The position numbers and the translations under genes were made by a program. The notes under the pieces were generated by a model that searched no databases, had not been told where the DNA came from, and worked only from the letters and a program-made list of their open reading frames with translations. From Thermofilum adornatum (lineage in GTDB: Archaea > Thermoproteota > Thermoprotei > Thermofilales > Thermofilaceae), in the NCBI RefSeq assembly GCF_000446015.1, contig NC_022093.1:1230001-1262000 (forward strand): 32,000 nucleotides of DNA. The letters run 5' to 3'. Shown here piece after piece: positions 940 through 22,475 of the stretch. Within the stretch, counting starts at the first letter, position 1. Each line of letters starts with the position of its first letter.

Positions 940-941
940 AA

Positions 942-952: not shown

Positions 953-1030
953 GGCTCAAAGCATATCTTGTTAGAGGATATACTCCAAAGCGTCACCCGG
1001 TTTTTGACCAGTTTTCTGGAGGTGAAATGG

Positions 1031-2029: not shown

Positions 2030-2032
2030 GCT

Positions 2033-2812: not shown

Positions 2813-3562
2813 ATGGGGAGGACCCGTGCAGTCATATGGCTCCATGCGATTAGAGCCAGAAGATACCTACTCTCCATGATTTCGAGCTCTCTTACAGACA
2901 CTCTGTGGATAGTTACCCTACTCCTAGGCTTCGTCCTTTCAGGAAAAACACAGCTCCTCGCAGAAAACCTCCTGGGACTAATAGCCTGGACAATAATCTC
3001 GAACTCAGCATGGATGATAAGCGGCTGGGTAGACTACCTAGGAGTCCTAGGCCTCATAGAGGAACACGAAGCCAGAGGAACATCCGTCTTCCTAGTACTA
3101 ACAGGCAGAATCATTCCTCTTCTCCTCTCCTCAGGAATAACTTCCACTATAACACTAATAATTTTCCGAATAGCTGGAGCCGAGATAGCCATACACTACC
3201 CCATTCACGTCTTGCTAACCCTTATACTACTAGTTGTGCAGTCCGCTGTATACGGGCTTCTGCTGGGGGCCCTAGCGCTAAAAACAGGTATCCCCGGATA
3301 CATGTTCGACATTGCCAGCCTAGCGTTCCTAGGACTCGCACTCATGCCTATAAATGAAGAACGCCTGTCCCAAATAATTTTTGTACCACTCCTAGGCCCC
3401 CAGCTAGCCACGAAGCTTGCAGGCCAGCAACCACTGGATTCACATTTACTATTTTTGCTCTTTTTAACAACACTACTGCAGATACCAATACTATTGGTAG
3501 TAATAAAGAAAGTCTCGAGAGACATACAAAAAACCGGAATAAAGATAATTGGTGAACTATGA
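2813..3562 (+). CDS. ABC-2 type transporter permease (subunit 2)
   Basis: 249 aa polytopic membrane protein whose ATG directly abuts the preceding stop (tag ATG at 2810-2815). It is a distinct sequence from subunit 1. Confidence 0.65.
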   Translation: MGRTRAVIWLHAIRARRYLLSMISSSLTDTLWIVTLLLGFVLSGKTQLLAENLLGLIAWTIISNSAWMISGWVDYLGVLGLIEEHEARGTSVFLVLTGRIIPLLLSSGITSTITLIIFRIAGAEIAIHYPIHVLLTLILLVVQSAVYGLLLGALALKTGIPGYMFDIASLAFLGLALMPINEERLSQIIFVPLLGPQLATKLAGQQPLDSHLLFLLFLTTLLQIPILLVVIKKVSRDIQKTGIKIIGEL

Positions 3563-3604
3563 CTACTTAATGGTCAAAAGGGAAGTCCCCAATCAGCATC
3601 TACG

Positions 3605-3612
3605 TTTTTTTT
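3605..3612 (+). terminator. Oligo-T tract (T8), archaeal-type terminator after the ABC-2 operon
   Basis: T8 run 43 nt after the stop at 3562. Archaeal RNA polymerase terminates at oligo-T tracts (established knowledge). Confidence 0.45.
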
Positions 3613-3781
3613 ACCTTCAAATTCAAACCTTTAAACCCATTTTAATACATTGTAATATCATGCCTCTAGTTTTTACTCTATTTTCCATCTAAAATACTGA
3701 TTATTTTTGTTTTTCTTTTATGAGGACAACTATGTAAAGAAAAATATATATGTTTTTCGATAGTTTTTATAACGACAAAAA

Positions 3782-5560: not shown

Positions 5561-5571
5561 AAAACAAATTA

Positions 5572-5577
5572 TTTTTT
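5572..5577 (+). terminator. Oligo-T tract (T6) after the hydrolase-membrane fusion gene
   Basis: T6 run 12 nt after the stop at 5560, in a convergent intergenic region. Confidence 0.4.
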
Positions 5578-5849
5578 CACAAACATTTTTTCCAAGAAGC
5601 TTTTTGGTTGCTTGATCTTTTTTCAGTTCCTTCGTCATTGTCTTCTGCTTTATTTCTAAGTACAACGAGAGATTAATGGACAAAACAAAATACACGAGAT
5701 GATTAGAAAAGTATAGTTTTCGTCAACATTAAGTATTATTTAATAAGGTCTAACTAACTGTAGTTTGGAAACCCCGGCTATATCACTTAGAGAAAAATCC
5801 TCCACATATGTTTTCCCAATCGTGTGTGACTCTAGCGGCATTATACGAC

Positions 5850-6398
5850 TCAAAATTTACATGCACTCGTATACTCTTCTCCACCCAAATGGAGAAGGGG
5901 TCGAACCTTAGACAAGTCATAAAGAGAGTTTTTCCACGCATCTCGCCTGACTCTCGCGGCTAATACTTCTCCCACAAACAAAGAGTGGTCACCACAAGGA
6001 TACTCAGCCGCTACTCTGCACTCGATGCACGCCAGTGAATTCCTTATGCATGGAACCTTTACCCTGAGAGGTGTTAAACTTTCTATCCCATATGCTTTGA
6101 ACTTGTCTATTTCGCTACCACTTGTCGAGCCAGTCTCTTCGACTAGCCCCAGCATTGTGGCTTCTACCGGGTTCAAGGTAAATTCTCCACTCTCCTTTAT
6201 CAGTTTGTACGTGTATCTCTTTGGCGAAATCGCAACGGCAACCAGCGGCGGATTCACAGAGACAGGTGTGACCCATGCCGCGGGCATAACATTGGCTCTG
6301 CCATCTTTCCCAATTGAGACAACGAGGACCACGAGTTTGGGGTGCAGCAACCTGGTATGTTGCCTGGTTACTACTTCAACATATTCAGGTAGGCTCAT
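5850..6398 (-). CDS. Flavin reductase-like FMN-binding domain protein (flavoredoxin-like)
   Basis: PKLVVLVVSIGKDGRANVMPAAWVTPVSVNPPLVAVAISPKRYTYKLIKESGEFTLN is typical of the flavin-reductase-like split-barrel family. It has its own TATA-like box (6423-6431, minus strand) 24 nt upstream of the ATG. Confidence 0.8.
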   Translation of the reverse strand: MSLPEYVEVVTRQHTRLLHPKLVVLVVSIGKDGRANVMPAAWVTPVSVNPPLVAVAISPKRYTYKLIKESGEFTLNPVEATMLGLVEETGSTSGSEIDKFKAYGIESLTPLRVKVPCIRNSLACIECRVAAEYPCGDHSLFVGEVLAARVRRDAWKNSLYDLSKVRPLLHLGGEEYTSACKF

Positions 6399-6444
6399 AC
6401 AATTGTTACTTTGCTGGATATGTATAAAAAAGATATGTTGCCAG

Positions 6445-7359
6445 CTATTCTAGTGAGAACTCTTCCGAGTGGGTCTTGATCTTCTTCTGTACTTTTTCTG
6501 GTAAGCTTTCGTCTTCGAGCCTCCTCTCCAGTGGCTTTACCACTACAACGCCGACGCCGTCCTCTATCTTTATCTCCCATGCCCTCAAGTCGTGGGCTGT
6601 CTGCCTCATTTTCTCGATAATGATGTACCTCGTGAGGACACCGTTGATCATTCTACGCTTAAAGTGGATGATTCCGTCGGCAATATGCTCAAGGCCCCAG
6701 CCAAAAGCGCTACCAGTCGTAATAGCATACTGGCTTGTAGCCATAATTGTGAACCCCCACTTGTTTAGTATCCTCTTGACAGTGTAGCTGTCCTCCCTAG
6801 CCTTGACAGGAGCCCTAAGCCAGAAAGCACTCATAGAGTCAATAACAAGCCTGCGGGCGTTTCTCCCCAGCTTTTTCTTTGCCTCTATAATCCTGCTAAG
6901 CATTTCCTCTACAGCGAGCTCGCGAAGGGTCCACTCGTCCTCCTTTTCTCGCATAAGGGCATCAATAATAACAAGCCTGCCAGACTCCAAAGCGCTCTGG
7001 AAATCCATCTTAAACTGCGCTGCCTGCCTCAGGATGCTCTCCCTGCTCTCCTCCGTAGTCACATATATCGCGCTTTCCCCAGCCCTCAAACCAGCCCATA
7101 CAAAATGCAGACATGTAATAGTCTTACCTGTACCAGGCATCCCCACGAGGGCGACAAAGAAACCCTCTGGGATCCCGCCCCTCAAAAGGGCGTCCAGGCC
7201 AGGAATTCCCGTGGAAAGTCTTCTAACCTCCACATCTAACCATGTAATAAATCCCAAGTGAAATATTTCAGCCTTTCTCCCAGAAATTGCCACCATGTGT
7301 GTTGCGCTGTTTGGAGAACATTGATATGCGTTCCATGCTTCTCTGAGGTAAAAGCTCAA
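6445..7359 (-). CDS. Single-domain KaiC/RecA-superfamily ATPase (archaeal KaiC-like)
   Basis: LSTGIPGLDALLRGGIPEG...GMPGTGKT (Walker A)...YVTTEES...LVIDSMS (Walker B-like). The start is uncertain. TTG at 7359 gives the maximal ORF, ATG at 7296 is an alternative, and GVG-type GTG at 7233 gives MEVRRLSTGIPGLD, the N-terminus most typical for this family. Confidence 0.8.
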   Translation of the reverse strand: MSFYLREAWNAYQCSPNSATHMVAISGRKAEIFHLGFITWLDVEVRRLSTGIPGLDALLRGGIPEGFFVALVGMPGTGKTITCLHFVWAGLRAGESAIYVTTEESRESILRQAAQFKMDFQSALESGRLVIIDALMREKEDEWTLRELAVEEMLSRIIEAKKKLGRNARRLVIDSMSAFWLRAPVKAREDSYTVKRILNKWGFTIMATSQYAITTGSAFGWGLEHIADGIIHFKRRMINGVLTRYIIIEKMRQTAHDLRAWEIKIEDGVGVVVVKPLERRLEDESLPEKVQKKIKTHSEEFSLE

Positions 7360-7698
7360 GGATCATGCTTGCCTGAAATACTTTTGTTAACTCTATACTT
7401 CAAGGCATCGCTTAAATCTTCGCCCCAGCCACCCAAAATCTGACTCTAGCCCTAGTCCTACGATTGAGTCCACTCTTTCGCTTGGTAAGCGAGAGGATAT
7501 GCTTATTTCTTCCATGTTCCTGTCCCGAATTGCTTTCCTATTAGAGCTTAACCTCACATCCCACTTTTGGCTACATATCTACGTAACTTGTCTATAAGCG
7601 ACTTGGGAACCACAAACCTGAGAATCTCCACCCATCCTTTATCCATTATATTTTTGCCTCAGAGTTAAGAGTTAATAAAGCTCTACGGTGCAGCGTTG

Positions 7699-8340
7699 TT
7701 AATAGAAATCAATCATATGTAAGACATCGTTTAAACTTTTAATTCCATCATATTTTCCGTCTCGTGAAACAAGTACTGCGCGAAGACCAGCCAATGATGG
7801 ATTCTTGTAGTCGCTCTCTGGGTCATCCCCAACATGTAGTATTTCGTGTGGCCCTATCCCCAGCTCGCGCAGAATAGCCTTAAAGAACTCTGGGGGTTTG
7901 CCTGGGAGAGAGAAGTCCGAGGATGAGGAAAAAACCCTTACAAACCTCTTTTCTAGGAATGGGAAGCGCGAAAATACGAGACCGATAAAATCCCTCGCCG
8001 CGCTAGTGCTAAGCACCAGTTTAACATGGTTTGGCACGTTCTCGAAAAATTCTAGGGCATCCTCGTAAATTTCGACGAGCTTCCCCGCCTCGCTCAAAGC
8101 ATATTCAAGCTCGTCCATCAAACCGAACCTCTGGAACCAGTACCTAGGAAGATACCACCTTAAATCTCCCTGCCCGACCTCGTCGTAAGACTGAAACACG
8201 ACACGCTTTGCCGTCTCAATGTCCAAGCTATGTCTCTCGGCGTACAGCCTAGGAACAAGCTCTAGCCAAAAATAGTCCACATACTTCCTGCTGACGATGG
8301 TTCCGTCCATGTCTAGAGAGATATACTTAATGCCCACCAT
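7699..8340 (-). CDS. HAD-superfamily hydrolase (phosphatase-like)
   Basis: Motif I is LDMDGTIV (DxDxT) near the N-terminus, and motif IV-like is HVGDDPESD. ATG at 8340 places DxDxT at residues 9-13. The ORF-track start at 8367 adds 9 aa. Confidence 0.75.
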   Translation of the reverse strand: MVGIKYISLDMDGTIVSRKYVDYFWLELVPRLYAERHSLDIETAKRVVFQSYDEVGQGDLRWYLPRYWFQRFGLMDELEYALSEAGKLVEIYEDALEFFENVPNHVKLVLSTSAARDFIGLVFSRFPFLEKRFVRVFSSSSDFSLPGKPPEFFKAILRELGIGPHEILHVGDDPESDYKNPSLAGLRAVLVSRDGKYDGIKSLNDVLHMIDFY

Positions 8341-8415
8341 TAGACACCTTGTCAACGATGTTTTCAAAATAAAAATGTCTATTTATACGTAACAATAGAA
8401 AAAAGGATGCATTAG

Positions 8416-9180
8416 TTATGAGAAACTATTGGCTAAACTTTTTGCTTTTTCGAGTCTACTCCTAGCACCTGCAACCAAGAACCTGTAATCGCTTCCCAAG
8501 GCTATAAATTTGAAACCATTTTTCAATGCGAATTCTAAGGATTCATCGTCAGGACAATACATACCTCCAGGAACTCCGAGGCTCATTGAAACTTCGGCAA
8601 CTTTTTCTATGGCTTTTCTTACAATCTCTTCTTTCCAAGACCTGTACCCATATGAAAACGATAGGTCATTTGGTCCAATAAAGAATGCATTTACTCCCTC
8701 AACCGAGAGTATATCCTCAATATTTTTGACGGCTTCTTGTGTCTCGATCTGGACGATTACTAGCACTTTGTCGGCATTGTCAAAATACTCATTTGTCTTT
8801 AAACCATAACTAGCGGCCCTACGGGGACCTACACCCCTAATGCCTTTTGGAGGATATCTCGTTGATGCAACAGCTTGTTTAGCATCTTCAGCTTTGTTGA
8901 TTAATGGGAAGAGAATACCGGCAAATCCTAGGTCAAGGACGCGTTTTACATAAACAGGGTCGTTAAAGGGTACTCTTACTATGGGAGTAGTGTCCCCCCT
9001 TACGGCCATTAACATATATTCCAGCATTTGAAAGTCTAAAGGTGCATGTTCAACGTCAAACAAGAGCCAATCAAAACCGAGTAGAGAAAGCATTTCTGGA
9101 ACTTCGGGATTTGCAATCGTTAACCAAGCACCCAGACTGATCTTGTTCTCAACCAAAAGTTTAGGCAGTCTTCCAAACAT
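8416..9180 (-). CDS. HpcH/HpaI-family class II (metal-dependent) 2-keto-3-deoxy-acid/pyruvate aldolase
   Basis: GAWLTIANPEVPEMLSLLGFDWLLFDVEHAP... then RVP...., QIET.EA..N...I..V.GV...FIGPNDLS. These are characteristic HpcH/GarL/RhmA family blocks. ATG at 9180; the TTG at 9189 is also in frame. Confidence 0.85.
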   Translation of the reverse strand: MFGRLPKLLVENKISLGAWLTIANPEVPEMLSLLGFDWLLFDVEHAPLDFQMLEYMLMAVRGDTTPIVRVPFNDPVYVKRVLDLGFAGILFPLINKAEDAKQAVASTRYPPKGIRGVGPRRAASYGLKTNEYFDNADKVLVIVQIETQEAVKNIEDILSVEGVNAFFIGPNDLSFSYGYRSWKEEIVRKAIEKVAEVSMSLGVPGGMYCPDDESLEFALKNGFKFIALGSDYRFLVAGARSRLEKAKSLANSFS

Positions 9181-9256
9181 TTGTGTCAAGAAATACGTTC
9201 ATTTCTTTTAAATAATTTTTATGCCAAACACATTCGGCGAAAAACATGAGGAAAGA

Positions 9257-9286
9257 CCAAACAATGTATGGGGATAATAATTAAAA
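9257..9286 (+). promoter_or_regulatory. CCAAAC-AAT-GTATGG near-palindrome followed by a TATA-like box (ATAATAATTAAAA) upstream of the 2-hydroxyacid dehydrogenase
   Basis: Read directly from the sequence. The TATA-like box at 9274-9286 lies 22 nt before the ATG at 9309. This is a divergent intergenic region shared with the HpcH aldolase. Confidence 0.35.
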
Positions 9287-9308
9287 TGCCCTGCCTATAA
9301 ACAAATGT

Positions 9309-10334
9309 ATGTACAAAGTTGCAATAGTGAATTCAAGGTCTTATGGAGTTGTTGCACCCGATGTTCTAGAAAACCTAAGAAGAGTTGCACAGGTTGATTT
9401 CTTGGACGTAGATAAAACCCTACGAGGTAAGCCGCTAGCTGAAAAACTCTCGGGCTATCATTTTATAATTGCAAGTGTAACACCGTTTTATGATCGAGAG
9501 TTTTTCGAACACCAGAAAGATGTTTTACTAATAGCGAGACACGGCATAGGATACGACAATGTAGATGTTACAGCGGCAACAGAGTACGGTGTCATTGTTA
9601 CACGTGTCCCCGGATACAAGGAAAGAGATGCAGTAGCAGAATTAGCCGTCGCTTTATGCCTTAATGTTGCGAGAAAAGTCTGTTTATCCGCCGGCTATGT
9701 TCGGGAAGGGAAATGGTCGGAAAGAGGAAAAATTGTTGGAATAAACATTAAGGGCAAAACAGTCGGCATCGTAGGCCTAGGAAACATTGGCAGTAGAGTT
9801 GCAGAAATATTTTCTAGAGGATTCGAGGCTAGAGTCATAGCCTATGATCCCTATGTAAGCAAGGAGCAGGCCTTTAAAAGTGGAGCTGAGCTGGTAGATT
9901 TTGATACGCTTTTAAAAAATTCAGATATCATCTTGCTACATGCTGCTTTAACTAGGGAGAACTATCATCTCATCGGCGAGAAGGAAATAGAGAAAATGAA
10001 AAAAGGAGTAATAATAGTAAATGCAGCTAGAGGAGAACTAATCGATACAAATGCTTTGATTAAAGGACTCGAGACTGGAAAAATTGGAGGAGTTGGGCTT
10101 GATGTAATAGAAGGCGAACCCATTGGAGCTGATCATCCTCTTCTTAAGTTCCCGAATGTCATTATAACACCTCACATAGGTGCAAATACTTTAGAGGCTT
10201 TAAGAGGGATGGATGAATCAAATGCTAATGCAATCTTACAGGTCATACGGGGGGAACCACCCTTCGAGTACATAGTAAACAAAGAAGTTTTAGAAAAAGG
10301 AACAAGAGCAAAAATAAAGCTTAGTTCTCATTAA
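9309..10334 (+). CDS. D-isomer-specific 2-hydroxyacid dehydrogenase (glyoxylate/hydroxypyruvate reductase or PGDH-like)
   Basis: NAD fold GIVGLGNIGSRVA, with catalytic-region blocks ARHGIGYDNVD, NAARGELID and TPHIGA. Confidence 0.9.
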   Translation: MYKVAIVNSRSYGVVAPDVLENLRRVAQVDFLDVDKTLRGKPLAEKLSGYHFIIASVTPFYDREFFEHQKDVLLIARHGIGYDNVDVTAATEYGVIVTRVPGYKERDAVAELAVALCLNVARKVCLSAGYVREGKWSERGKIVGINIKGKTVGIVGLGNIGSRVAEIFSRGFEARVIAYDPYVSKEQAFKSGAELVDFDTLLKNSDIILLHAALTRENYHLIGEKEIEKMKKGVIIVNAARGELIDTNALIKGLETGKIGGVGLDVIEGEPIGADHPLLKFPNVIITPHIGANTLEALRGMDESNANAILQVIRGEPPFEYIVNKEVLEKGTRAKIKLSSH

Positions 10335-11826
10335 ACAAAGGAATCAAACTATTTAAAACTTTTTTAAATTTTTCATATTGCTTCTCATAAACCAATCTGT
10401 TTTCAGAAGGAAGGGCTATCCTGTCGAAACGAAGATATTGGTCGAATTTAGTTAATTCGAAAGATGGATCCAGCGTTTCCAGAGCAACTAGCGCTGAGCC
10501 AAACAAAGCGGCATCTCCTCTAGTAAACGCCTTTATAGGCGTATTTAAAACGTCCGCCAATATTTGTAGCCATAGCTGGGACTGAGCACCGCCACCTGTA
10601 ATTCTCACTTCTTTAAATCTTAAGTTGTTCTCCCTCAGAGCCTCATTGACAAGGTTCAGATTATAAGCGACTCCTTCCATGAATGCTCTCAAAATGTCTC
10701 TTTTTGTATGCCACTCTCTTAGTCCAAAAATTACAGCACTTGAGTTGTTACCAAAAATAGGGAATCTCTCTCCACTAAGGTATGGTAAGAAAATAATGCC
10801 GTTTGCCCCTGGAGGTGAAAGCATTGCCTCTCTGTCCAGAATCTCATATACACTTATGCCTAGATCTTGGGCCAATACTTTCTCTAAGCCTCCCAAAGAA
10901 TCCCTGAACCACCTTAAGACAACGCCACCGCTGTTTACTGCTCCACCCGGGAGCCAAGTTTTCTTTAAAGAATAGTATGTTTGGAATCGCATATAGGGAG
11001 ACTTATCAATGACCGGATACGGGCTTGCAACTCTAAGCATCGTGCTAGTAGATAAATGAGAAGTAGCTATCTCTTGATTCAAACCGCCTAATCCAATAGA
11101 GACCGCTGCTCCATCAAAAACTCCTGCTACAATGGGAGCCCCAGATTTTATCCCAAGTTCGTTAGCGATGCTTACAGGTAAGTCTCCTATAATTGTGTTA
11201 GGCTCCACCAACCTTGGCAATATGCCAGGGTCTATACCAATCGATTCGATAAGGTCGAAATCCCAATCGAGAGAATACATATTGAGGAGTTGCGAACCAG
11301 AAGCTGAACTTCTATCCATAACTTTTTCTCCAATAAGACGCAGAAACAAAAAACCCTTAGCATCCAGAATAGTTTTTGTCTTTTCGAGAAGCGTCTTCTT
11401 CTCTTGTAGTAACCAAAACAACTTCGCTAATTGATATATATATAAAGGAGGACATCCAGTCCTCCTGTAAACCTCAAACGGATCTAAAGTCTTATAAAGC
11501 CTAGGAAGATACTTTGCTGGTCTTCTGTCAAGCCATGTAAATATATTTGTTAATGGTCTGTTTTGTGAATCTAACCCGATAAGACCAAACAGGTATCCAG
11601 AAACAACTATTCCATCTATCTCCTCCATATTTGCTTTTCGAATTGTCTCCTTGACAGTCTCTTTAAATATTCCCCATAAATAATCGGCGCTGTGCTCTGC
11701 TGCTTCAGGCTCTGGTCTTAAAAGGGGAACTTCAATTGTATTGAATCCCTTCACTCCATCTCCTTCAAAATCAATTAAACCTGATTTTACTGTGCTAGTT
11801 CCTATATCAACTGCTAGTATTCTCAT
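10321..11826 (-). CDS. FGGY-family carbohydrate kinase (xylulokinase/gluconokinase-like), copy 1
   Basis: N-terminal MRILAVDIGTSTVKSG, then PPGANGIIFLPYLSGERFP and ITGGGAQSQLWLQILADV (FGGY C-terminal signature). Confidence 0.9.
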   Translation of the reverse strand: MRILAVDIGTSTVKSGLIDFEGDGVKGFNTIEVPLLRPEPEAAEHSADYLWGIFKETVKETIRKANMEEIDGIVVSGYLFGLIGLDSQNRPLTNIFTWLDRRPAKYLPRLYKTLDPFEVYRRTGCPPLYIYQLAKLFWLLQEKKTLLEKTKTILDAKGFLFLRLIGEKVMDRSSASGSQLLNMYSLDWDFDLIESIGIDPGILPRLVEPNTIIGDLPVSIANELGIKSGAPIVAGVFDGAAVSIGLGGLNQEIATSHLSTSTMLRVASPYPVIDKSPYMRFQTYYSLKKTWLPGGAVNSGGVVLRWFRDSLGGLEKVLAQDLGISVYEILDREAMLSPPGANGIIFLPYLSGERFPIFGNNSSAVIFGLREWHTKRDILRAFMEGVAYNLNLVNEALRENNLRFKEVRITGGGAQSQLWLQILADVLNTPIKAFTRGDAALFGSALVALETLDPSFELTKFDQYLRFDRIALPSENRLVYEKQYEKFKKVLNSLIPLFNEN

Positions 11827-12505
11827 ATCTAGTGTTCTTCCATTCTAAGCCTACAAGAGAACTTAAAATTTTTGCCTCAGATCTTCGAATATGCTCCGCC
11901 AGAGTAGCCTTTGACACACCAAGCTCCTTTGCTAAATCAGTTAAGGAAAACTTTCTGGGCCAGTCGAAGTAGCCCCGAATCACTGCACGAGAAATTACTT
12001 CTCGTTGCAAAGGAGTTAATTTTGAAAAAATGTCTGCTTGAAGAATTAGTTTATACGAATCATTTATAGCTTCACAGATGTATGAAGTTTGAAATCTTAA
12101 AATATCACCCCTCTTTGCCAACTTTTCGGTTATTACTTTTGGATCCTCTTCAGATATAAGGTAAAACTTTCTAACTCCGTTCCTAATTAAGTAGGGAAAA
12201 ATGACAAAATTCCCAGAACCTAGAGTATACGCGTAAAAATCACAGCTGTCTTTTTCTATTACAAAAGTCAGAGAGGATTTCGACTTCATTAATATCTTCA
12301 CTTTTCCTGTGTCTTCTTTATTGAGTACCTTGCTAAATTCATCTACATGTTTCTTCTTCTGTGGCATTAGCGAGTAGACCAAAGTCTTTGATTTACTATC
12401 GTCGTATGTTATGCCTAGAACCAAAATCTCTACTCCTGGTATTTTCGAGAGTTCTGCTAAAGTACTCTGGTAAGGTCGCATATATATGAGATAAGGTCTG
12501 TGCAT
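11807..12505 (-). CDS. HTH_10 (Bat-type helix-turn-helix) transcriptional regulator with an uncharacterised N-terminal domain
   Basis: C-terminal LTPLQREVISRAVIRGYFDWPRKFSLTDLAKELGVSKATLAEHIRRSEAKIL matches the HTH_10/Bat DNA-binding domain pattern. The 3' end overlaps the FGGY kinase start by 20 nt. Confidence 0.75.
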   Translation of the reverse strand: MHRPYLIYMRPYQSTLAELSKIPGVEILVLGITYDDSKSKTLVYSLMPQKKKHVDEFSKVLNKEDTGKVKILMKSKSSLTFVIEKDSCDFYAYTLGSGNFVIFPYLIRNGVRKFYLISEEDPKVITEKLAKRGDILRFQTSYICEAINDSYKLILQADIFSKLTPLQREVISRAVIRGYFDWPRKFSLTDLAKELGVSKATLAEHIRRSEAKILSSLVGLEWKNTRYENTSS

Positions 12506-12557
12506 TGTAAACCTGCATTCATAGAATTAATCTTTCTATTTAAAACTTTTCTGGAAA

Positions 12558-12588
12558 GGCAAATATGTTTGGCTCCATAGTTAAATAA
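12558..12588 (+). promoter_or_regulatory. Imperfect palindrome GGCAAATATGTTTGGC followed by a TATA-like box (TTAAATAA, 12581-12588) upstream of the class I aldolase
   Basis: 6 of 8 palindromic pairs match. It shares the 8-mer GTTTGGCT (12567-12574) with 13517-13524. The TATA-like box lies 23 nt upstream of the ATG at 12612. Confidence 0.4.
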
Positions 12589-12611
12589 GGGTAACTTTAT
12601 CGTTGGATTCG

Positions 12612-13508
12612 ATGAATGAGAAAAAACTGTATGGTATCTTACCACCACTTATAACTCCATTCGATGAGAAGGGAGAAGTCAAGACAGACACTCTTAGTCG
12701 ACTTATTGAATTTACTTATCCATATGTCCATGGCTACTATGTTTGTGGCACTTATGGTCTAGGACCTATAATGAGAATAGATCAAAGAAAAATAGTTGCT
12801 GAAAAAATAATGGAATTTGTCAAAGGGTCAAAGACTGTAGTTATACATGTCGGTTCAACAGACACAGAGACTGCAGTCCAATTGGCTAGGCACGCGGAAG
12901 ATATCGGTGCAGATGCTGTTGCTAGTGTTCCTCCTTTCTACTATGCGCACCCGGACTCTCATGTTGTGGAGTATTTTAAAGACATAGTAGCCTCTGTCAC
13001 GATACCAGTTTACGCATACAACAATCCACAAAGAGTTGGCTATCAAATTAACCCTCAACTTGCACTTAAGCTAAAAAATGTAGGGGTAGTTGGTATTAAA
13101 GACAGTAGCTTTGATATTCAACAGTTTATAGAATATAAGGTAACAGTGGGAAAAGATTTCGACGTAGTCGTTGGTACAGAGGCTCTTATGGTTCCTGGCT
13201 ATGTTTTAGGAGCACGTGCATTTATTCCTGGAATGTCGAATTATGCCCCTGAAGTAGTTTATAAACTATTTAAGTTGCTCGAGGAAAATGATCTTGAGAA
13301 GGCTGTAGAACTTCAGTTCATGATAAACAAGTTCCGAAAAGAACTCCATAGACTGGGTTCCACAATTCCTCTCGTGTACACACTTATGAAACTGCGGGGA
13401 GTAGATGCCGGTTTGCCCAGAAAACCCTTCATCCCTCTTCCTGAAGAGTTAAAACATGACGTCAAAGCCCTCTTGGAGGAATTACTAAATGAGCGAAATT
13501 ATGGATAG
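12612..13508 (+). CDS. DapA/NAL-family class I (Schiff-base) aldolase, KDG/KD(P)G-aldolase-like
   Basis: PLITPF near the N-terminus, GTYGLGP in place of the GTTGE block (compare GTTGLGP as I recall it in Sulfolobus KDG aldolase), YAYNNP (catalytic Tyr region), and GIKDSS (Schiff-base Lys). ATG at 12612; the TTG at 12603 is also in frame. Confidence 0.85.
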   Translation: MNEKKLYGILPPLITPFDEKGEVKTDTLSRLIEFTYPYVHGYYVCGTYGLGPIMRIDQRKIVAEKIMEFVKGSKTVVIHVGSTDTETAVQLARHAEDIGADAVASVPPFYYAHPDSHVVEYFKDIVASVTIPVYAYNNPQRVGYQINPQLALKLKNVGVVGIKDSSFDIQQFIEYKVTVGKDFDVVVGTEALMVPGYVLGARAFIPGMSNYAPEVVYKLFKLLEENDLEKAVELQFMINKFRKELHRLGSTIPLVYTLMKLRGVDAGLPRKPFIPLPEELKHDVKALLEELLNERNYG

Positions 13509-13526
13509 CCAAACAAGTTTGGCTAT
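13505..13526. promoter_or_regulatory. Perfect 10+10 bp palindrome ATAGCCAAAC-AA-GTTTGGCTAT abutting the TATA box of the ABC importer operon; candidate operator
   Basis: Read directly from the sequence. It overlaps the aldolase stop codon (13506-13508) and its right arm runs into TATAAATATTAA (13524-13535), 25 nt before the SBP ATG. Confidence 0.5.
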
Positions 13527-13560
13527 AAATATTAATGGTAAAGTATAATAATACACCTTG

Positions 13561-14964
13561 ATGAGCCAAAAAAACAATACAAAAATAATTGCCATTGCTG
13601 TTTTAGTCGTCCTAATAATAGCAGGCATTGGCTTCTTTCTAATGCAGCAACCTAAGCAGCCACAGCCTACAACTCCACAGCAACCAACAACCCCCTCCCA
13701 ACAAACCGCTACAACTAGGCCTAAACTAGTTATCTGGGGAAGAAGCACATTTACACCACCTCAGATGTATTGGATTGAAAAGAAAGTTCGTGAGTGGGCG
13801 GCAAAGAATAACGTGGATGTTGAAATAACATGGTTATCGGTAACAGATATTGGAAAGAAGCTTATTGCAGCTGTTGAAGCAGGAAACCCGCCTGACATAG
13901 TGATAAATGGTCACCCGGTTGCTATTTTCGCGGAGAAAGGATTATTGATACAAATAGATGACATTATCGAGAAACTAAATAAAAGCGACATATATGAAAT
14001 AAAACTCAAAGAATGCGAATGGAGCGGTCACTACTATTGCCTTCCCACAATGTTTGAAGCCACCTGGCTACATGTCCGCTGGGACATAGTCAAAAAAGCA
14101 AATGCAGAAAACCTATTCCCATTAAAAACACTAGATGACTTCTATACTGCTGCAAAAGTCTTAAACCAAGTAGAGCCTGGAGTGTATGGAGTAGGTCTAC
14201 CCTTAGGATTGAACGGCTACGATACATGGTGGACCTTCCTACACTTCTGGGGAGGATACGGGGGAGGAATGCTAACAGATAGAAGTGTAGCTGGAGTTAT
14301 AATGGATAAAGAGCCATATCGAACGGGTCTCAAAAAAGCTTTTGAAATAGAAAGGAAGATATGGCTTGAGAAATTAACTCCGCCAGATAGTGATCAATGG
14401 GTCGATGCATCCAACAACAATGCCTACCTTCAAGGAAAAATTGCAATGACAATGAATCCGGCAAGCATATGGTATGCAGTAATGACACAGAATCCTGCTC
14501 TAGCAGCAAACACCAAATTATTCTTGTTGCCAGTCTCAGTAGACTGTGGCGACGAAAGCGTTTTCATATTCAAAACAACAAAATATCCAGACCTTGCAAA
14601 AGACCTGGTTTACTACTTATATGCCGACAAAGAAGACTATCGTAAAGGATTCTGTGAAGCCTCAGGCCTCTATGCGCTCCCCATATTTAAGTCCCAAATG
14701 CAGGTAATCTCCAAAGACTGGAAAGCAGGCAAGTATCCTGCCCTCGGTGAAGACCCAGCAAAAGCGGTCGAAAAAATCAAATTCATGGAAACAGCGGCCT
14801 TCCCGTTAGGTGAGAGAACAACACCTAGCGAGACATTTAGAGAAGGGTTCACGTGGAACGAAATGATTCAGAGAGTAGTCATCAAAGGAGAGGATCCAGA
14901 CAAAGTCATAGACGAGTATGCAGCAAAGCTGAGGGAAGAAGTTAAAAGAGTATATGGAGGATAA
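13561..14964 (+). CDS. CUT1-type (family 1) extracellular sugar-binding protein of an ABC importer, membrane-tethered
   Basis: N-terminal TM anchor (IIAIAVLVVLIIAGIGFFL) followed by a Q/P/T-rich linker (QQPKQPQPTTPQQPTTPSQQTATT), then a 400 aa binding-protein body. It sits immediately upstream of two MalF/MalG-type permeases. Confidence 0.85.
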   Translation: MSQKNNTKIIAIAVLVVLIIAGIGFFLMQQPKQPQPTTPQQPTTPSQQTATTRPKLVIWGRSTFTPPQMYWIEKKVREWAAKNNVDVEITWLSVTDIGKKLIAAVEAGNPPDIVINGHPVAIFAEKGLLIQIDDIIEKLNKSDIYEIKLKECEWSGHYYCLPTMFEATWLHVRWDIVKKANAENLFPLKTLDDFYTAAKVLNQVEPGVYGVGLPLGLNGYDTWWTFLHFWGGYGGGMLTDRSVAGVIMDKEPYRTGLKKAFEIERKIWLEKLTPPDSDQWVDASNNNAYLQGKIAMTMNPASIWYAVMTQNPALAANTKLFLLPVSVDCGDESVFIFKTTKYPDLAKDLVYYLYADKEDYRKGFCEASGLYALPIFKSQMQVISKDWKAGKYPALGEDPAKAVEKIKFMETAAFPLGERTTPSETFREGFTWNEMIQRVVIKGEDPDKVIDEYAAKLREEVKRVYGG

Positions 14965-14995
14965 AAAATTATTTTTCTTTTTTGGTGATTTTTCT

Positions 14996-15850
14996 ATGTC
15001 GAAAACTACTCGATCACTTTATAACTGGATCTATGTTCTGCCTACCCTAGTCTTGATTATCTTCATCTTCATAATCCCGATAGCATATAACATATGGCTG
15101 AGCTTTCAAGAAAAAACTATAGGTGGAGAAGCCGTTTTTGCTGGTCTCAAGAATTATCAACGATTGCTAGCATCTTCTATGTTTTATAAGTCTGTTGGTA
15201 ATTCTTTGTTGTATACTTTTATTTCTGTGACTTCTAAGGCATTAATTGGCTTAGGAGTAGCTCTACTCCTTAACAAGAAATTCTGGGGAAGAGGCTTCTT
15301 AAGAGGTTTCTCAATTCTTCCATGGGCTTTCCCGTCTTTCGTTGTAGCAGTTTTGTTCTGGTTCAACTATGACTACAGAGGTACATTCAACACGATATTC
15401 AAAATGTTAGGTTTACAGCCTGTACACTGGATGAGCTATGAGAATGCTATGTGGTCAGTTATCCTTATAAATATATGGCATGGATGGCCCTTCTTCTTTA
15501 TGGGTTATCTAGCTGGTCTACAAGCTATCCCCACAGACCTGTATGAGGCGGCTGAGATTGACGGGGCCAATGTTTACCAGAAATTTATTCATATAACTGT
15601 TCCGCAATTAAAACAAGTTCTCTTGACCGTGATGTTGCTCTCAACGATGTGGACGCTGGGAGAATTTACACAAATTTACATGACTACTGGTGGTGGTCCA
15701 GTTGACGCAACTTTGACGATACCAATGGCTACATATAAAATAGCTTTTCTTACGGAAATTAATTTCCCGCTTGCCGCTGCATATACTATATTAGTACTAC
15801 CAATTTACTTGTTCCTAATATATTTCACTTTAAAGCAAATGGGTGAATAA
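14996..15850 (+). CDS. Sugar ABC transporter permease (MalF/UgpA-like)
   Basis: Polytopic protein with an EAA-type loop (YEAAEIDGANVYQKFIHITVPQL). ATG at 14996 is preceded by GGTGA. The ORF-track start at 14954 overlaps the SBP end and adds a non-membrane FFFF stretch. Confidence 0.85.
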   Translation: MSKTTRSLYNWIYVLPTLVLIIFIFIIPIAYNIWLSFQEKTIGGEAVFAGLKNYQRLLASSMFYKSVGNSLLYTFISVTSKALIGLGVALLLNKKFWGRGFLRGFSILPWAFPSFVVAVLFWFNYDYRGTFNTIFKMLGLQPVHWMSYENAMWSVILINIWHGWPFFFMGYLAGLQAIPTDLYEAAEIDGANVYQKFIHITVPQLKQVLLTVMLLSTMWTLGEFTQIYMTTGGGPVDATLTIPMATYKIAFLTEINFPLAAAYTILVLPIYLFLIYFTLKQMGE

Positions 15851-15852
15851 AG

Positions 15853-16731
15853 ATGGCCGGTCATTCAGGAAAAATCTTGAACAAAATCATTATTGCCGTG
15901 GGCGTCATCCTCTTGTTACTCTGGATAATTATCCCCACATTCTGGGCATTCAAGACAAGCATATCTGTACCAGAAGAAGCATGGAAACCAATCCCAACAA
16001 AAATCACGTTAGACAACTACCTCAGTCTATTCAATCCCTCCCTGGAGGCTATTCTTCGTGGCATGGGTCTCCGTGCGGCCTTACCAGACCCAATGATCGT
16101 ATACGTGACAAATAGTTTAATTGTTTCTCTAACTGCATCTATTATAGGTGTTATTTTTGGGTCGCTTGCCGGCTACAATTTGGCTAGATTCAGCTATCGA
16201 GGCAAAAGGATAGTAATGTGGCTTGTACTTTTTGCGTATGTTTTTCCCGTATTTATCTTAATGGTACCCATCTTAGTCATGATGCGTTATCTTGGCCTGT
16301 ACAATACTTTGCTAGGATTATCAATCGTTCACTTAGCGTATACCCTTCCATACTCAACTCTAATTATGAGAAGCTATTTCTCAGGTATACCAAGCGTTCT
16401 GGAAGAAGCAGCACTAATTGATGGATGCACAAGGCTAGAAGCATTGTGGCGTGTCGTTATTCCTGTAGCTATACCAGGCTTTGTAACGGCATTTATTTTC
16501 TCATTCACATTATCTTGGAATGATTTGCTCTTTGCCTTGATTTTACTAAATTCTAGTCACAAATATACCTTGCCAATAGCTACTACATTCTTCCTATGGG
16601 GTGGCGAAATAGTTGATCCAGGCGGTCTAGCTGCTACAGCAATTTTTGCTGGAATTGTACCCTCAGTACTTTACATGCTGGTTCAAAAATATGTAGTAGT
16701 AGGGCTAGTTAAAGGAGCAGTAAAAGCATAG
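15853..16731 (+). CDS. Sugar ABC transporter permease (MalG/UgpE-like)
   Basis: EAA loop LEEAALIDGCTRLEALWRVVIPVA and six hydrophobic segments. It starts 2 nt after the upstream permease stop. Confidence 0.9.
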   Translation: MAGHSGKILNKIIIAVGVILLLLWIIIPTFWAFKTSISVPEEAWKPIPTKITLDNYLSLFNPSLEAILRGMGLRAALPDPMIVYVTNSLIVSLTASIIGVIFGSLAGYNLARFSYRGKRIVMWLVLFAYVFPVFILMVPILVMMRYLGLYNTLLGLSIVHLAYTLPYSTLIMRSYFSGIPSVLEEAALIDGCTRLEALWRVVIPVAIPGFVTAFIFSFTLSWNDLLFALILLNSSHKYTLPIATTFFLWGGEIVDPGGLAATAIFAGIVPSVLYMLVQKYVVVGLVKGAVKA

Positions 16732-16739
16732 TGAAATTT

Positions 16740-18269
16740 ATGACAACCGTTGTTATTGATATTGGAACGACAAATATAAAGACAGGTATTTTTGACGATG
16801 ACGGTCAACTGCTTGATCTACATTACGAAAGAGTAAACCTGGAGGTTGATGCCACGGGCAGGGCGGAGCAAGACCCTTACGATATATACTCGAAGGTGGT
16901 AGCATCCTTAAGACACGCTTCCAGAGTGACAGGTGGCGAAGCAGAAGCAATCTTCTTTACGTCGCAAATGCATAGTGCTATGCTTCTAGATAAAAATGGA
17001 GAACCGTTATCAAGGCTAATTACCTACTTAGATACACGTCTATCCCTGCATCTAGACGAGCTTAGTCTGAAGAATCATGATCTTTATCACGAGACGGGAT
17101 GTCCACCACTTATCATTTATCCACTTCCAAAGATTATTTACTTAAAGAAAATACTTAAACCAGACACAAAACATAAAATCGCTGTTTCAGTCAAAGAATT
17201 TCCTCTTTTAAAACTTACAGGTCACTTGGTTGTTGACGCTTCAACAGCATCAGGTGCTCAAATGGTGGATATACATTCTTTGAAGTGGAGTGAACATGCG
17301 GTGAGCTTGGCTCAACTTTCAGAGGAAAATCTTCCGGAGCTTGTTATTGGTGAAAAAGAGTACCTTGAGCTGACGAGTGATGCCGCGTCACTTATAGGTT
17401 TTAAAAAAGGCACTCCCGTCTATCCTGGCGTTTCCGACGCTGGAGCACATAGCTTTGGAGTATTAGCGATCGAAGAAAATACACTTGCTTTAAATGTAGG
17501 TACAAGTGCTGCGATTCGATTAACAAAGCCTGAACCGCAAGTGGATAGATACGACATGAGATTTTTCAGTTATTATGCAGGAAACTCAAGATGGATAATT
17601 GGAGGAGCTATAAACAATGCGGGTATCGCAGTTGAATGGTTCCTAAAATCATTTGCTACAGCCGAAGAAATAGTTTCAGATACGGCTCGTATAGACAAAT
17701 TCTCTTTGTTGGACGTAGAAGCACAGCTTTCGCCTCCAGGCGCCAATGGGCTAATATTTTTACCCTACTTGACCGGCGAAAGGTTTCCAATTCGTGATCC
17801 ATACTTTAGAGGAGTTCTCTACGGAGCATCCCTATCAACCACTAGAAACGATGTTTTAAGAGCCATAATGGAAGGAGTAGCATTTACTCTCAAAATGATT
17901 TACAATGCCTTACAAGAAAACGGGTTGAATGCTTCAATTATCCATGGAGGAGGTGGCGGATTACGCATGAAAACATGGAGACAAATCTTCTCGGACATAT
18001 TCGGCATACCGCTTCTAGTCGTTAGAGAAGACTACGAACCAACACTTATAGGAGGATGGTTACACTTCGCTTTAGCTAACGGTCTTATTAGCTATAAAGA
18101 AGCTCTTTACAGGTTTAAAGAAGTATTGCAGGACGGAGCTAACCCTGACCCCTTCACTAGTGAATTTTATTCAGAATACGTGAATTTATTTATAAAGCTT
18201 TATAACACTCTTAGGGACTATAGCAGAGAATTTCATAACTTTACAAAGAAACATGTAAAAGTTTTTTAA
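16740..18269 (+). CDS. FGGY-family carbohydrate kinase, copy 2 (paralogue of 10321-11826)
   Basis: MTTVVIDIGTTNIKTG, PPGANGLIFLPYLTGERFP and HGGGGGLRMKTWRQIFSDI. The ATG at 16740 gives the canonical N-terminus. An in-frame GTG at 16731 overlaps the permease stop by 1 nt. Confidence 0.9.
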   Translation: MTTVVIDIGTTNIKTGIFDDDGQLLDLHYERVNLEVDATGRAEQDPYDIYSKVVASLRHASRVTGGEAEAIFFTSQMHSAMLLDKNGEPLSRLITYLDTRLSLHLDELSLKNHDLYHETGCPPLIIYPLPKIIYLKKILKPDTKHKIAVSVKEFPLLKLTGHLVVDASTASGAQMVDIHSLKWSEHAVSLAQLSEENLPELVIGEKEYLELTSDAASLIGFKKGTPVYPGVSDAGAHSFGVLAIEENTLALNVGTSAAIRLTKPEPQVDRYDMRFFSYYAGNSRWIIGGAINNAGIAVEWFLKSFATAEEIVSDTARIDKFSLLDVEAQLSPPGANGLIFLPYLTGERFPIRDPYFRGVLYGASLSTTRNDVLRAIMEGVAFTLKMIYNALQENGLNASIIHGGGGGLRMKTWRQIFSDIFGIPLLVVREDYEPTLIGGWLHFALANGLISYKEALYRFKEVLQDGANPDPFTSEFYSEYVNLFIKLYNTLRDYSREFHNFTKKHVKVF

Positions 18270-18385
18270 AAATACTTGGAAAAGATTGTTTTTATCTAAA
18301 AGATCTTAAATGCATTTTTCTCAAATATTTGATACCTGTTGAAGAAAATAAGCACAGGAAACAAGAATACCAGTTCTAGGAAAAG

Positions 18386-21984: not shown

Positions 21985-22458
21985 ATGAGTGAAGAGTTAC
22001 TCGTGAGGAAAATTAGGGACGGAACAGTTATAGACCACATACCTGCGGGTAGGGCACTGGACGTACTAAAGATTCTTGGACTCAGCGGCAAAGAGGGGTC
22101 AACTATAGCCATAGTAATGAACGTCCCGAGCAAAAAGCTGGGAAGAAAAGACATTGTTAAGGTTGAGGGCAAGTTTCTCGAGCCAAAAGAAGTAGACGAG
22201 ATCGCGCTTATAGCGCCCACAGCGACTATAAACATAGTGAAGGACTTCAGGGTTTTAGAAAAGAGGAGAGTCCAAGTTCCAGGGGAAATAAAAGGTTTGC
22301 TTAGGTGTCCAAACCCCAACTGCGTCACAAATACCAAGAGAGAGCCCATAGAGACAAGGTTCAAACTCGTATCCATTGCTCCGCTCAAGCTAAAATGCTA
22401 CTACTGCGAAGACATAGTAACAGAGGAACAAGTCATACAGCAATTAGTAAGAGAATAG
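21985..22458 (+). CDS. pyrI: Aspartate carbamoyltransferase regulatory subunit
   Basis: [14 protein letters not shown]-domain and a C-terminal Zn cluster CPNPNC...CYYCE. Confidence 0.92.
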
Positions 22459-22475
22459 TAAGGTCGAAGAACAAC

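Follow-up and report, generated by a model that had tools for sequence, protein, structure and literature searches.

A probable sugar-acid uptake and pyruvate-aldolase island of Thermofilaceae with an enzyme set outside the textbook pathways

Which pathway is served by nine neighboring carbohydrate genes of the archaeon Thermofilum adornatum, and how did these genes come to differ in base composition from everything around them? The block lies within a 32,000-nt stretch of the genome (contig NC_022093.1, positions 1,230,001 to 1,262,000; hereafter the window) and encodes two pyruvate aldolases, two FGGY kinases, a D-isomer-specific 2-hydroxyacid dehydrogenase (2HADH), a CUT1-type binding protein with two permeases, and an HTH_10 regulator. 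Gene order, composition, promoter motifs and the company kept by related genes make it highly probable that the block is a co-regulated sugar-acid uptake and pyruvate-aldolase island. For its chemistry we favor, tentatively and with a little less than even confidence, a branch resembling the lower part of the semi-phosphorylative Entner-Doudoroff (ED) pathway, in which an FGGY kinase plus a dehydrogenase would stand in place of a dehydratase plus a PfkB-type 2-keto-3-deoxygluconate (KDG) kinase.

We assigned gene families by Pfam and judged closeness to characterized enzymes by NCBIfam equivalog cut-offs and PDB sequence searches (Table 1). Pfam bore out all nine gene identities and positions that a first-pass annotation had read from the sequence. 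The starts given there for the class II aldolase (HpcH, 9180) and for the class I aldolase of the dihydrodipicolinate synthase family (DHDPS, 12612) are ATG-based calls that agree with public annotations of metagenome-assembled genomes (MAGs), while the open reading frames (ORFs) used here begin at 9189 and 12603. The HTH_10 and FGGY kinase 1 (FGGY1) genes overlap by 20 nt, the FGGY1 and 2HADH genes are convergent with an overlap of 14 nt, and the gene of FGGY kinase 2 (FGGY2), the last of the aldolase-transporter operon, overlaps the preceding permease gene by 1 nt. The strand layout demands at least four transcription units (HpcH; 2HADH; HTH_10-FGGY1; DHDPS-to-FGGY2) in place of the three proposed earlier, and an internal promoter ahead of the binding-protein gene would possibly make a fifth. 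As the first-pass annotation had also noted, no dehydratase, lactonase, sugar dehydrogenase or PfkB kinase is encoded in the block according to Pfam, and neither enolase-superfamily nor IlvD/Edd domains were detected in the nine block proteins and 20 scanned flank ORFs.

Table 1. Genes and promoter features of the nine-gene block and the nearby transporter ATPase (window coordinates)
Feature	Coordinates	Strand	Domains and remarks
HpcH/HpaI-type class II (metal-dependent) pyruvate aldolase (HpcH)	8416-9189	-	PF03328, 132 bits
Divergent promoter region HpcH/2HADH	9190-9308		operator-like sites 9224-9237 and 9257-9271, upstream of an A/T-rich TATA-like stretch
D-isomer-specific 2-hydroxyacid dehydrogenase (2HADH)	9309-10334	+	PF02826 and PF00389
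FGGY kinase 1 (FGGY1), gluconokinase/xylulokinase-like	10321-11826	-	PF00370 and PF02782
HTH_10 transcription regulator, putative regulator of the block	11807-12505	-	PF04967 at residues 163-214
Divergent promoter region HTH_10/DHDPS	12506-12602		operator-like site 12559-12572 (GCAAATATGTTTGG), TATA-like TTAAATAA just downstream
Class I (Schiff-base) pyruvate aldolase, DHDPS/NAL family	12603-13508	+	PF00701, 190 bits, full length
Perfect 14-bp palindrome CCAAACAAGTTTGG in the spacer from the DHDPS stop codon to the binding-protein gene	13509-13522		CTATAAATA directly after
CUT1-type extracellular solute-binding protein (SBP_bac_1)	13558-14964	+	PF01547 and PF13416
Two ABC permeases, MalF/MalG type (BPD_transp_1)	14954-15850, 15853-16731	+	PF00528 in both
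FGGY kinase 2 (FGGY2), gluconokinase-like	16731-18269	+	PF00370 and PF02782
Orphan MalK-type ABC ATPase, outside the block	28043-29134	+	PF00005, OB_MalK, TOBE_2

Exact sequence matches to the window come from a set of hot-spring MAGs. The window species shares its nine genes, with order and orientation unchanged, with Thermofilum pendens Hrk5 (CP000505; L007), Infirmifilum lucidum (CP062310; L011) and Infirmifilum sp. KC_020 (L018), and shorter Thermofilaceae contigs hold partial copies (L009, L019, L029). The complete block was limited to Thermofilaceae in a scan of one genome per species, which rests on peptide patterns and missed T. pendens and I. lucidum themselves, so that it is no gauge of absence.

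A Gibbs search of two divergent spacers (HpcH/2HADH and HTH_10/DHDPS) in six genomes yielded a 14-bp motif, SCNAWYNNRTTTGG, which is an imperfect inverted repeat, CCNAAC-N2-GTTTGG. This motif matches only three times in the 32 kb, each time in a spacer of the block (9224-9237, 12559-12572 and 13509-13522), against 0.29 matches expected by chance, and eight times in 1.2 Mb of unrelated loci. Its presence in three block spacers and nowhere else in the window suggests that the block is a single regulon. The spacer between the DHDPS aldolase and the binding protein, which had been left out of the motif derivation, carries it in all five genomes (the window, L007, L011, L018 and L009). The sites at 12559 and 13509 lie directly upstream of a TATA-like element (the second copy at 13521-13535), and an A/T-rich stretch is located about 35 nt downstream of the site at 9224, right behind the weaker site at 9257-9271. 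Together with the CTATAAATA that follows it, the palindrome at 13509-13522 is a probable internal promoter and operator. A hand-made operator pattern, CCWAAYNNNKTTWGG with one mismatch, was unspecific (10 matches versus 2.7 expected, mostly outside the block), and the Gibbs motif was taken instead.

The HTH_10 protein probably controls the block via this inverted repeat, a pairing of regulator and operator that we infer. HTH_10 genes flank the same aldolase subfamily in other archaeal loci too, and the strict motif was not found in these HTH_10-linked clusters (L016, L020-22, L050), which points to an operator specific to the nine-gene block. PDB and NCBIfam contained no relative of the regulator. 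Co-regulation, whose absence the first-pass annotation had named beforehand as a result that would overturn its reading, thus looks likely from a shared motif confined to the spacers of the block, and the locus provides a compact system in which to study an archaeal HTH_10 regulator whose candidate operator is clear.

Base composition delimits the same interval. Over the full span, the G+C content (GC) is 39.8% in the block and 45.9% in the flanks. An unsupervised two-boundary likelihood segmentation of the whole window, blind to genes, placed its boundaries at 8300 and 18500 (log-likelihood gain 52), and the lowest-GC 10-kb window begins at 8301. The step lies mostly at third codon, synonymous positions: GC at these positions (GC3) ranges from 0.31 to 0.39 in the nine block genes and from 0.41 to 0.57 in 21 flank genes, with no overlap (Mann-Whitney p = 1e-5). 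The boundaries and GC3 values confirm the step reported earlier at about 8.4 and 18.3 kb; the hand-counted G+C of eleven 60-nt lines behind that report was exact on re-checking, but this line sample (36% in the block, 50% in the flank) overstated the contrast, which is about 6 points and not 14. Two shorter dips to about 0.40-0.42 occur in the left flank at 3001-4500 and 5001-6500, one close to the spacer that precedes the hydrolase gene and one near 5560-6400; neither stays as low as the block over so long a stretch. The block is also AT-richer than its flanks in all four loci with measurable flanks, namely the window, T. pendens (46.8% versus 63.5%, or 17 points), I. lucidum (46.9% versus 54.1%) and L009 (45.0% versus 54.0%). 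The T. pendens block (L007 5815-15606) is among the sharpest local composition drops in this analysis. One operon that stays AT-rich across hosts of local GC 46% to 63% poses a small, clean puzzle for models of amelioration.

Does this contrast record a horizontal acquisition, as the first-pass annotation suggested? The compositional step keeps transfer plausible, but recent transfer does not fit the other observations. Identity between genomes at four-fold degenerate sites is 0.2-0.4, which is saturated, in the block and in the pyrimidine (pyr) genes alike. The block contains no mobility genes, the scanned flank ORFs no integrase or transposase domains, and a scan for island hallmarks found no tRNA and no flanking or terminal repeats beyond chance-level matches; an Rfam scan returned no RNA element. 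The window and L009 have the block upstream of the pyrimidine operon, and in I. lucidum it is inverted and about 2.4 kb from pyrC-pyrD-pyrG. Any transfer should therefore be old, given the lack of mobility genes, the saturated synonymous sites and the pyr-adjacent position in three genomes. The T. pendens block occupies a different neighborhood, with a DsrE/protoglobin/GH38 region on one side and the hydrogenase maturation genes hypDCE on the other. We read this evidence as an old, family-wide accessory island of foreign-looking composition that moved at least once, and not as a recent acquisition in this genome.

Compared with I. lucidum, protein identity is 71-84% for the binding protein, permeases, HpcH and 2HADH and 47-56% for the adjacent pyr proteins; HpcH is 74-82% identical to its T. 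pendens and I. lucidum orthologues, and the binding protein 84-92% identical across Thermofilaceae. This last value prompted us to consider recent exchange among Thermofilaceae, which we rejected in view of the saturated four-fold sites, and the higher identity of transporter, HpcH and 2HADH over the pyr proteins appears to reflect constraint instead. Conservation is uneven inside the block as well: between the window and Infirmifilum (L011/L018), identity reaches 71-87% for the binding protein, permeases, HpcH and 2HADH but only 38-50% for FGGY1, FGGY2 and the regulator. Since synonymous sites are saturated in the L011 copies, this unevenness would reflect different constraint or an old partial replacement.

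The low GC need not come from transfer at all. An old, vertically inherited accessory locus might retain AT-rich synonymous positions for other reasons, such as low expression, weak selection or biased gene conversion, and we give this explanation a sizeable minority share of our confidence. The saturated four-fold sites in block and pyr genes alike, the lack of a tRNA, integrase or terminal repeat, and the proximity of pyr genes in the window, L009 and I. lucidum all agree with it, as does the GC at four-fold degenerate sites (GC4) of the block, which follows host GC (0.28, 0.41, 0.45 and 0.45). It accounts less well for T. pendens, where the block stands in a different neighborhood with its 17-point drop, and for the identity of transporter, HpcH and 2HADH proteins in I. 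lucidum, which exceeds that of the pyr proteins. A second CUT1 sugar operon a few kb away in I. lucidum, moreover, has a host-like GC of about 0.54-0.56 where the block has 0.47, so AT-richness is not a general trait of accessory sugar operons.

What could these enzymes do? The class I aldolase scores 183 bits against NF040954, the model of archaeal 2-keto-3-deoxy-(6-phospho)gluconate (KD(P)G) aldolases (Arch_KDGaldase; cut-off 390). Its CGTYGLGP follows the carboxylate-binding GT(T/Y)GLGP motif (AGTTGLGP in Thermoproteus tenax and NGTTGLGP in Sulfolobus acidocaldarius; 2r91, 2nuw) and not the G(S/T)(S/T)GE of DapA/NanA, and the Schiff-base K166 and catalytic Y139 are invariant in 42 relatives and align with 2r91 and 2nuw. 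We place its subfamily as a sister group of the archaeal KD(P)G aldolases. HpcH scores 209 and 205 bits against two GarL models (cut-offs 393 and 407), with 2-dehydro-3-deoxygalactarate aldolase as best PDB match (1dxe, E = 2e-52). The 2HADH is related to phosphoglycerate dehydrogenase (PGDH) and to glyoxylate/hydroxypyruvate reductase; it reaches 272 bits against PGDH (cut-off 454) and 260 against glyoxylate reductase (cut-off 455), and its PDB matches include 1wwk (PGDH), 2dbq (glyoxylate reductase) and 9m0t (2-ketogluconate reductase). FGGY1 and FGGY2 score 303 and 278 bits against the gluconokinase model TIGR01314 (GntK; cut-off 649), and both find gluconate kinase 3gbt as best PDB match (E = 2e-60 and 7e-59); NCBI labels the FGGY2 orthologues of T. 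pendens and I. lucidum 'gluconokinase'. The two kinases share 34% identity and are about equally far from their nearest outgroups, which suggests an old duplication. Across all enzymes, the binding protein and the regulator, PDB sequence searches returned distant relatives or none, and no close characterized homologue.

The importer consists of a family-1 binding protein, which carries an N-terminal membrane anchor and a Pro/Gln/Thr-rich linker, and two MalF/MalG-type permeases, whose best NCBIfam relatives (MalF/UgpA/GlcT and GlcU/MalG) all score under the cut-off. No MalK-type ATPase gene was found in the block. The orphan MalK-type gene in the right flank has host-like GC and lies after pyrG and before a glycerophosphodiester phosphodiesterase gene (29582-30286, +), with no adjoining permease or binding-protein genes. 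We name its product as a purely conjectural candidate for energizing the transporter of the block; it may serve several CUT1 systems that lack their own ATPase, this one included.

To place the class I aldolase in context, we collected 80 genome loci with relatives at 38-59% identity (whole locus, ±10 kb), clustered the ORFs within four genes of the aldolase without prior labels and then annotated the main clusters. Within four ORFs, the aldolase is accompanied by 2HADH in 25 loci, FGGY kinases in 18, a PF04199 metal-dependent hydrolase in 16, PfkB in 14, DgoK-type kinases in 11 and aldehyde:ferredoxin oxidoreductase (AFOR) in 9. Other neighbors at this distance are acid-type transporters (TRAP, TctABC), CUT2 systems and the EIIC-GAT component of the phosphotransferase system (PTS), and related modules carry the TRAP, TTT (TctABC) and CUT2 transporters, LarA-type 2-hydroxyacid epimerases and, in one case, a UxaE uronate epimerase. 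Kinase kinds alternate next to the aldolase: 17 loci have FGGY only, 12 PfkB only, 10 DgoK-type only and 2 have two kinds. The PfkB gene stands immediately downstream of the aldolase in 13 of its 14 loci, and these neighbors match KDG and 2-keto-3-deoxygalactonate kinase models best (281-298 bits).

The associations between these partners follow a pattern (Fisher test for the PTS comparison; none of the p values carries a phylogenetic correction). Where a PTS EIIC gene adjoins the aldolase, none of the three kinase kinds is present (0/8 loci, versus 51/72 of the others; p = 1.5e-4). Over whole loci, 2HADH occurs in 16/25 FGGY loci versus 55 others with 13 (p = 9e-4), in 1/23 PfkB loci versus 28/57 (p = 8e-5), and in five of the eight PTS loci. 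IlvD/Edd-type dehydratases are found near the aldolase subfamily in 3/80 loci, and one related locus (L065) has such an enzyme next to the aldolase. The trio of DHDPS aldolase, FGGY kinase and 2HADH occurs in Thermofilaceae, Desulfurococcales, Thermoplasmata, Bipolaricaulota, Thermotogae, Anaerolineae and other lineages, and the FGGY-2HADH pair is also seen without the aldolase (L098). The closest relative of the binding protein outside Thermofilaceae (Aerophobetes, 49% identity) lies in a compact cluster, SBP-P-P-DHDPS-DgoK-2HADH, and the closest FGGY2 outgroup with readable context in a Thermoplasmata locus with 2HADH, GH3, DHDPS, FGGY, UxaE and 2HADH. HpcH relatives outside the block occur with an FGGY kinase (L102) or with 2HADH and a CUT1 transporter (L101); in the latter, a GarR-like beta-hydroxyacid dehydrogenase lies beside HpcH-2HADH.

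Two of these loci have features of their own. Directly upstream of the HpcH gene in L101, at 9277-10011, lies a 244-aa C-terminal fragment of an FGGY kinase, probably a decayed kinase gene. An uncultured member of Thermofilaceae (CAZCTW010000001.1, about 280-10900; L016/L020) encodes a full PTS set (EI, two HPr, EIIB and EIIC-GAT); the adjoining genes are those of an HTH_10 regulator, a 2HADH, a PF04199 hydrolase and an aldolase of this subfamily, and no kinase is among them.

We propose the following mechanism, in which the catalytic roles and the order of steps are drawn from the observed families, conservation, composition step, motif placement and co-occurrence. The substrate is most likely an acidic sugar derivative, namely a six-carbon (possibly also five-carbon) hydroxy acid whose terminal hydroxyl is free; the TRAP, TctABC and CUT2 transporters, the LarA-type epimerases and the single cases of a dehydratase and a uronate epimerase in related modules point to acids. 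Uptake would run through the CUT1 binding protein and the two permeases with an ATPase supplied in trans, a gluconokinase-related FGGY kinase would phosphorylate the terminal hydroxyl, and the PGDH-related 2HADH would set the 2-oxo group before or after the kinase step. Cleavage of the resulting phosphorylated 2-keto-3-deoxy acid by the DHDPS-family aldolase would yield pyruvate together with a phospho-aldehyde, for instance glyceraldehyde 3-phosphate. The block may hold two parallel lines, DHDPS-transporter-FGGY2 and, for a stereoisomer or a homologue of shorter chain, HpcH-2HADH-FGGY1, with the HTH_10 protein controlling all promoters through the CCNAAC-N2-GTTTGG repeat.

The comparative pattern suggests an early role of the kinase. 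It seems dispensable where import through a PTS already phosphorylates the substrate; most simply, then, the kinase would work on the acid as imported or on an early intermediate, and what the aldolase cleaves would be a phosphorylated 2-keto-3-deoxy acid, as in the semi-phosphorylative ED branch. Since FGGY, PfkB and DgoK-type kinases alternate beside the aldolase, the FGGY enzyme plausibly does the job of a KDG kinase. The 2HADH goes with FGGY and PTS and not with PfkB, the FGGY kinases resemble aldonate kinases and the 2HADH a phospho-2-hydroxyacid dehydrogenase, from which the FGGY and PTS versions would start from a 2-hydroxy and not a 2-keto acid; if the 2HADH makes the 2-oxo group, no dehydratase is needed. 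The first-pass annotation had taken the lack of PfkB and dehydratase as a misfit with the semi-phosphorylative ED pathway. Both are indeed missing, but the comparative context points the other way, as FGGY plausibly fills the kinase slot and 2HADH may cover for the dehydratase.

Several observations weigh against this mechanism. No block enzyme reaches the NCBIfam equivalog cut-off of any pathway enzyme. The residues that align with what we take to be the Arg/Tyr/Arg phosphate-binding triad of the Sulfolobus KD(P)G aldolase are His116, Asn141 and Arg273, of which only the last is conserved. Over whole loci, 9 of 51 kinase-bearing loci have more than one kinase kind (eight with two, one with three), so the alternation of kinases holds only near the aldolase. 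The bacterial FGGY kinases next to the aldolase are just 27-32% identical to FGGY1 and FGGY2, and the FGGY slot may be polyphyletic; the FGGY kinase of L081 just passes a broad xylulokinase (XylB) model, and apart from it none of the neighboring bacterial kinases, short-chain dehydrogenases or LarA proteins has an NCBIfam equivalog. AFOR genes beside the aldolase (at least 9/80 loci; 16 over whole loci) fit a free aldehyde from non-phosphorylative cleavage as well as they fit oxidation of glyceraldehyde 3-phosphate. The role given to HpcH is essentially a guess. Finally, the co-occurrence tests over the 80 loci ignore phylogeny, and many of the contigs are short.

Part of this evidence would suit a non-phosphorylative cleavage, which we consider unlikely. 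In an analogue of the GarL-GarR-GarK route, the aldolases would split an unphosphorylated 2-keto-3-deoxy acid into pyruvate and a free aldehyde (glyceraldehyde, tartronate semialdehyde or lactaldehyde), the 2HADH would act as a hydroxypyruvate/glyoxylate-type reductase yielding D-glycerate or a similar product, and the FGGY kinases would phosphorylate that product. The best matches of HpcH to GarL and galactarate aldolase, the nearly equal 2HADH scores for glyoxylate reductase and PGDH, AFOR-family genes adjoining the aldolase in many bacterial loci, the GarR-like enzyme of L101 and the lack of two of the three presumed phosphate-binding residues all speak for such a route. A kinase acting on the cleavage product is, in contrast, hard to square with its absence from all eight PTS-import loci and with a kinase slot that elsewhere holds KDG-kinase-like PfkB or DgoK-type enzymes acting before cleavage, and to our knowledge no FGGY glycerate kinase has been described.

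Similarly improbable in our view is a classical keto-aldonate or aldonate route, with 2HADH as a TkrA/KguD-type 2-ketoaldonate reductase, the FGGY enzymes as gluconate or aldonate kinases, and a dehydratase encoded outside the block supplying KD(P)G. The 'gluconokinase' label on orthologous kinases, gluconate kinase as best structural-database match of both kinases, 2-ketogluconate reductase among the top matches of the 2HADH and the dehydratase next to the aldolase in L065 are in line with it. Yet IlvD/Edd-type dehydratases are rare among the 80 loci, both kinases score below half of the gluconokinase cut-off, and the compact Aerophobetes cluster of transporter, aldolase, kinase and 2HADH looks self-contained.

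A more speculative and rather doubtful idea is the dehydratase-independent salvage of 3-deoxy-aldonic (metasaccharinic-type) acids. Here 2HADH would oxidize 3-deoxy-D-hexonate at C2 to give KDG directly, or its 6-phosphate (KDPG) if phosphorylation came first. Such a substrate would explain a 2HADH in place of a dehydratase, an aldonate-kinase-like kinase, LarA and the hydrolase: in some bacterial versions, the LarA-type C2 epimerase could allow handling of both C2 epimers and the metal-dependent hydrolase could open a lactone. Metasaccharinic acid was the top carboxylic product in heat-sterilized glucose solutions (PMC13280894). Acids of this type would hence be expected as a steady by-product wherever sugars are kept at 80-90 °C, as in the habitat of Thermofilaceae, and sugar-consuming hyperthermophiles should encounter them. 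Many other hosts of the module belong to lineages with thermophilic members (Thermotogae, Acetothermia/Bipolaricaulota, Desulfurococcales).

That the genes merely lie side by side by chance and serve no single pathway (for example as pentulose kinases, a lysine-pathway or sialate-lyase paralogue and an aromatic-pathway aldolase) is very improbable: each family is functionally broad and no gene reaches an equivalog threshold, but at least four genomes share the gene order and orientation while their housekeeping proteins next to the block are just about 50-80% identical, the operator motif is confined to block spacers, and the aldolase recurs with kinase and 2HADH across phyla.

How does the favored FGGY-plus-dehydrogenase mechanism compare with known systems? 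The semi-phosphorylative ED pathway of T. tenax and Sulfolobus comprises gluconate dehydratase, PfkB KDG kinase and a DHDPS-family KD(P)G aldolase. Like it, the block clusters a DHDPS-family class I aldolase bearing GT(T/Y)GLGP with a sugar-acid kinase, its expected products are pyruvate and a triose (phosphate), and relatives of its aldolase adjoin a KDG-kinase-like PfkB. Unlike it, the block has no gluconate/galactonate dehydratase, its kinase is FGGY and not PfkB, its aldolase stays at 183 bits where the cut-off is 390, and it adds 2HADH, a second (class II) aldolase, a dedicated ABC importer and the HTH_10 regulator. The GarL-GarR-GarK route of E. coli (glucarate/galactarate) shares the combination of HpcH-type aldolase, reductase and kinase, with pyruvate and an aldehyde that is then reduced and phosphorylated; GarR, however, comes from the beta-hydroxyacid dehydrogenase family and GarK from the glycerate kinase family, whereas the block has 2HADH and FGGY, lacks the GudD/GarD dehydratases and the NAD_binding_2/11 and glycerate kinase domains, and its HpcH remains at 209 bits against a cut-off of 393.

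Two bacterial operons offer partial parallels. The Pseudomonas 2-ketogluconate operon encodes kguK, a PfkB kinase, and kguD, a 2HADH-family reductase, and its pathway runs on via Edd and an Eda-type aldolase. It resembles the block in joining a sugar-acid kinase, a 2HADH-family enzyme acting at C2 of a phosphorylated hexonic acid and a transporter, but it has neither a DHDPS nor an HpcH aldolase, and KguK is a PfkB enzyme. The uncharacterized yoaD-yoaC-yoaB genes of B. subtilis (2HADH, FGGY kinase, transporter) show the same pairing of FGGY with a PGDH-like 2HADH next to a transporter, but they lack an aldolase and offer no functional anchor. The block hence works most like the lower branch of the archaeal semi-phosphorylative ED pathway, yet differs from it in the missing dehydratase, the missing PfkB and an aldolase below the cut-off. 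In all likelihood it varies a known pathway type and is not a new kind: its families and overall logic are ordinary, while their combination is uncharacterized, perhaps with a non-orthologous kinase and an entry that needs no dehydratase. The earlier view that the enzyme set falls outside textbook pathways agrees with the equivalog results and with the literature, as targeted searches (Thermofilum, Infirmifilum, and FGGY/aldolase/2HADH combinations) found no paper describing this gene set and the T. adornatum genome paper makes no mention of the cluster.

If the proposed mechanism is true, FGGY would join PfkB and DgoK-type enzymes as a third, non-homologous kinase for the kinase-plus-aldolase step of ED-type breakdown, and a dehydrogenase-based entry would make the dehydratase unnecessary. 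It would also give a function to the widespread, generically annotated trio of DHDPS-family aldolase, FGGY and 2HADH and correct the labels 'gluconokinase' and 'dihydrodipicolinate synthase family' in these genomes. T. pendens and I. lucidum are cultured, which makes the predictions testable.

Around the block, the left flank encodes an ABC2 exporter, a hydrolase, a flavin reductase, a KaiC-like ATPase and a HAD hydrolase, and the right flank a major facilitator superfamily transporter, followed by pyrF-E-B-I-C-K-D, an HD protein, pyrG, the MalK-type ATPase and the phosphodiesterase. The HAD-family hydrolase gene (7699-8367, -) follows HpcH on the same strand at a distance of 48 nt and may share its transcript; its GC3 of 0.53 is host-like, and it does not adjoin the block in T. 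pendens or I. lucidum. The alpha/beta-hydrolase gene (3782-5560, +, in the window; around 16267-18046 in L001, L004 and L005) encodes 592 aa here and in part of the MAGs of this species, and the other MAGs have calls of 544, 525 or 512 aa plus a fragment of 49 aa, which suggests a frameshift, start polymorphism or assembly difference. The mechanical ORFs of pyrI (21985-22458) and pyrC (22305-23783) overlap by 154 nt; public calls in a relative have 436 aa versus 492 aa here, and the true pyrC start is probably a downstream codon.

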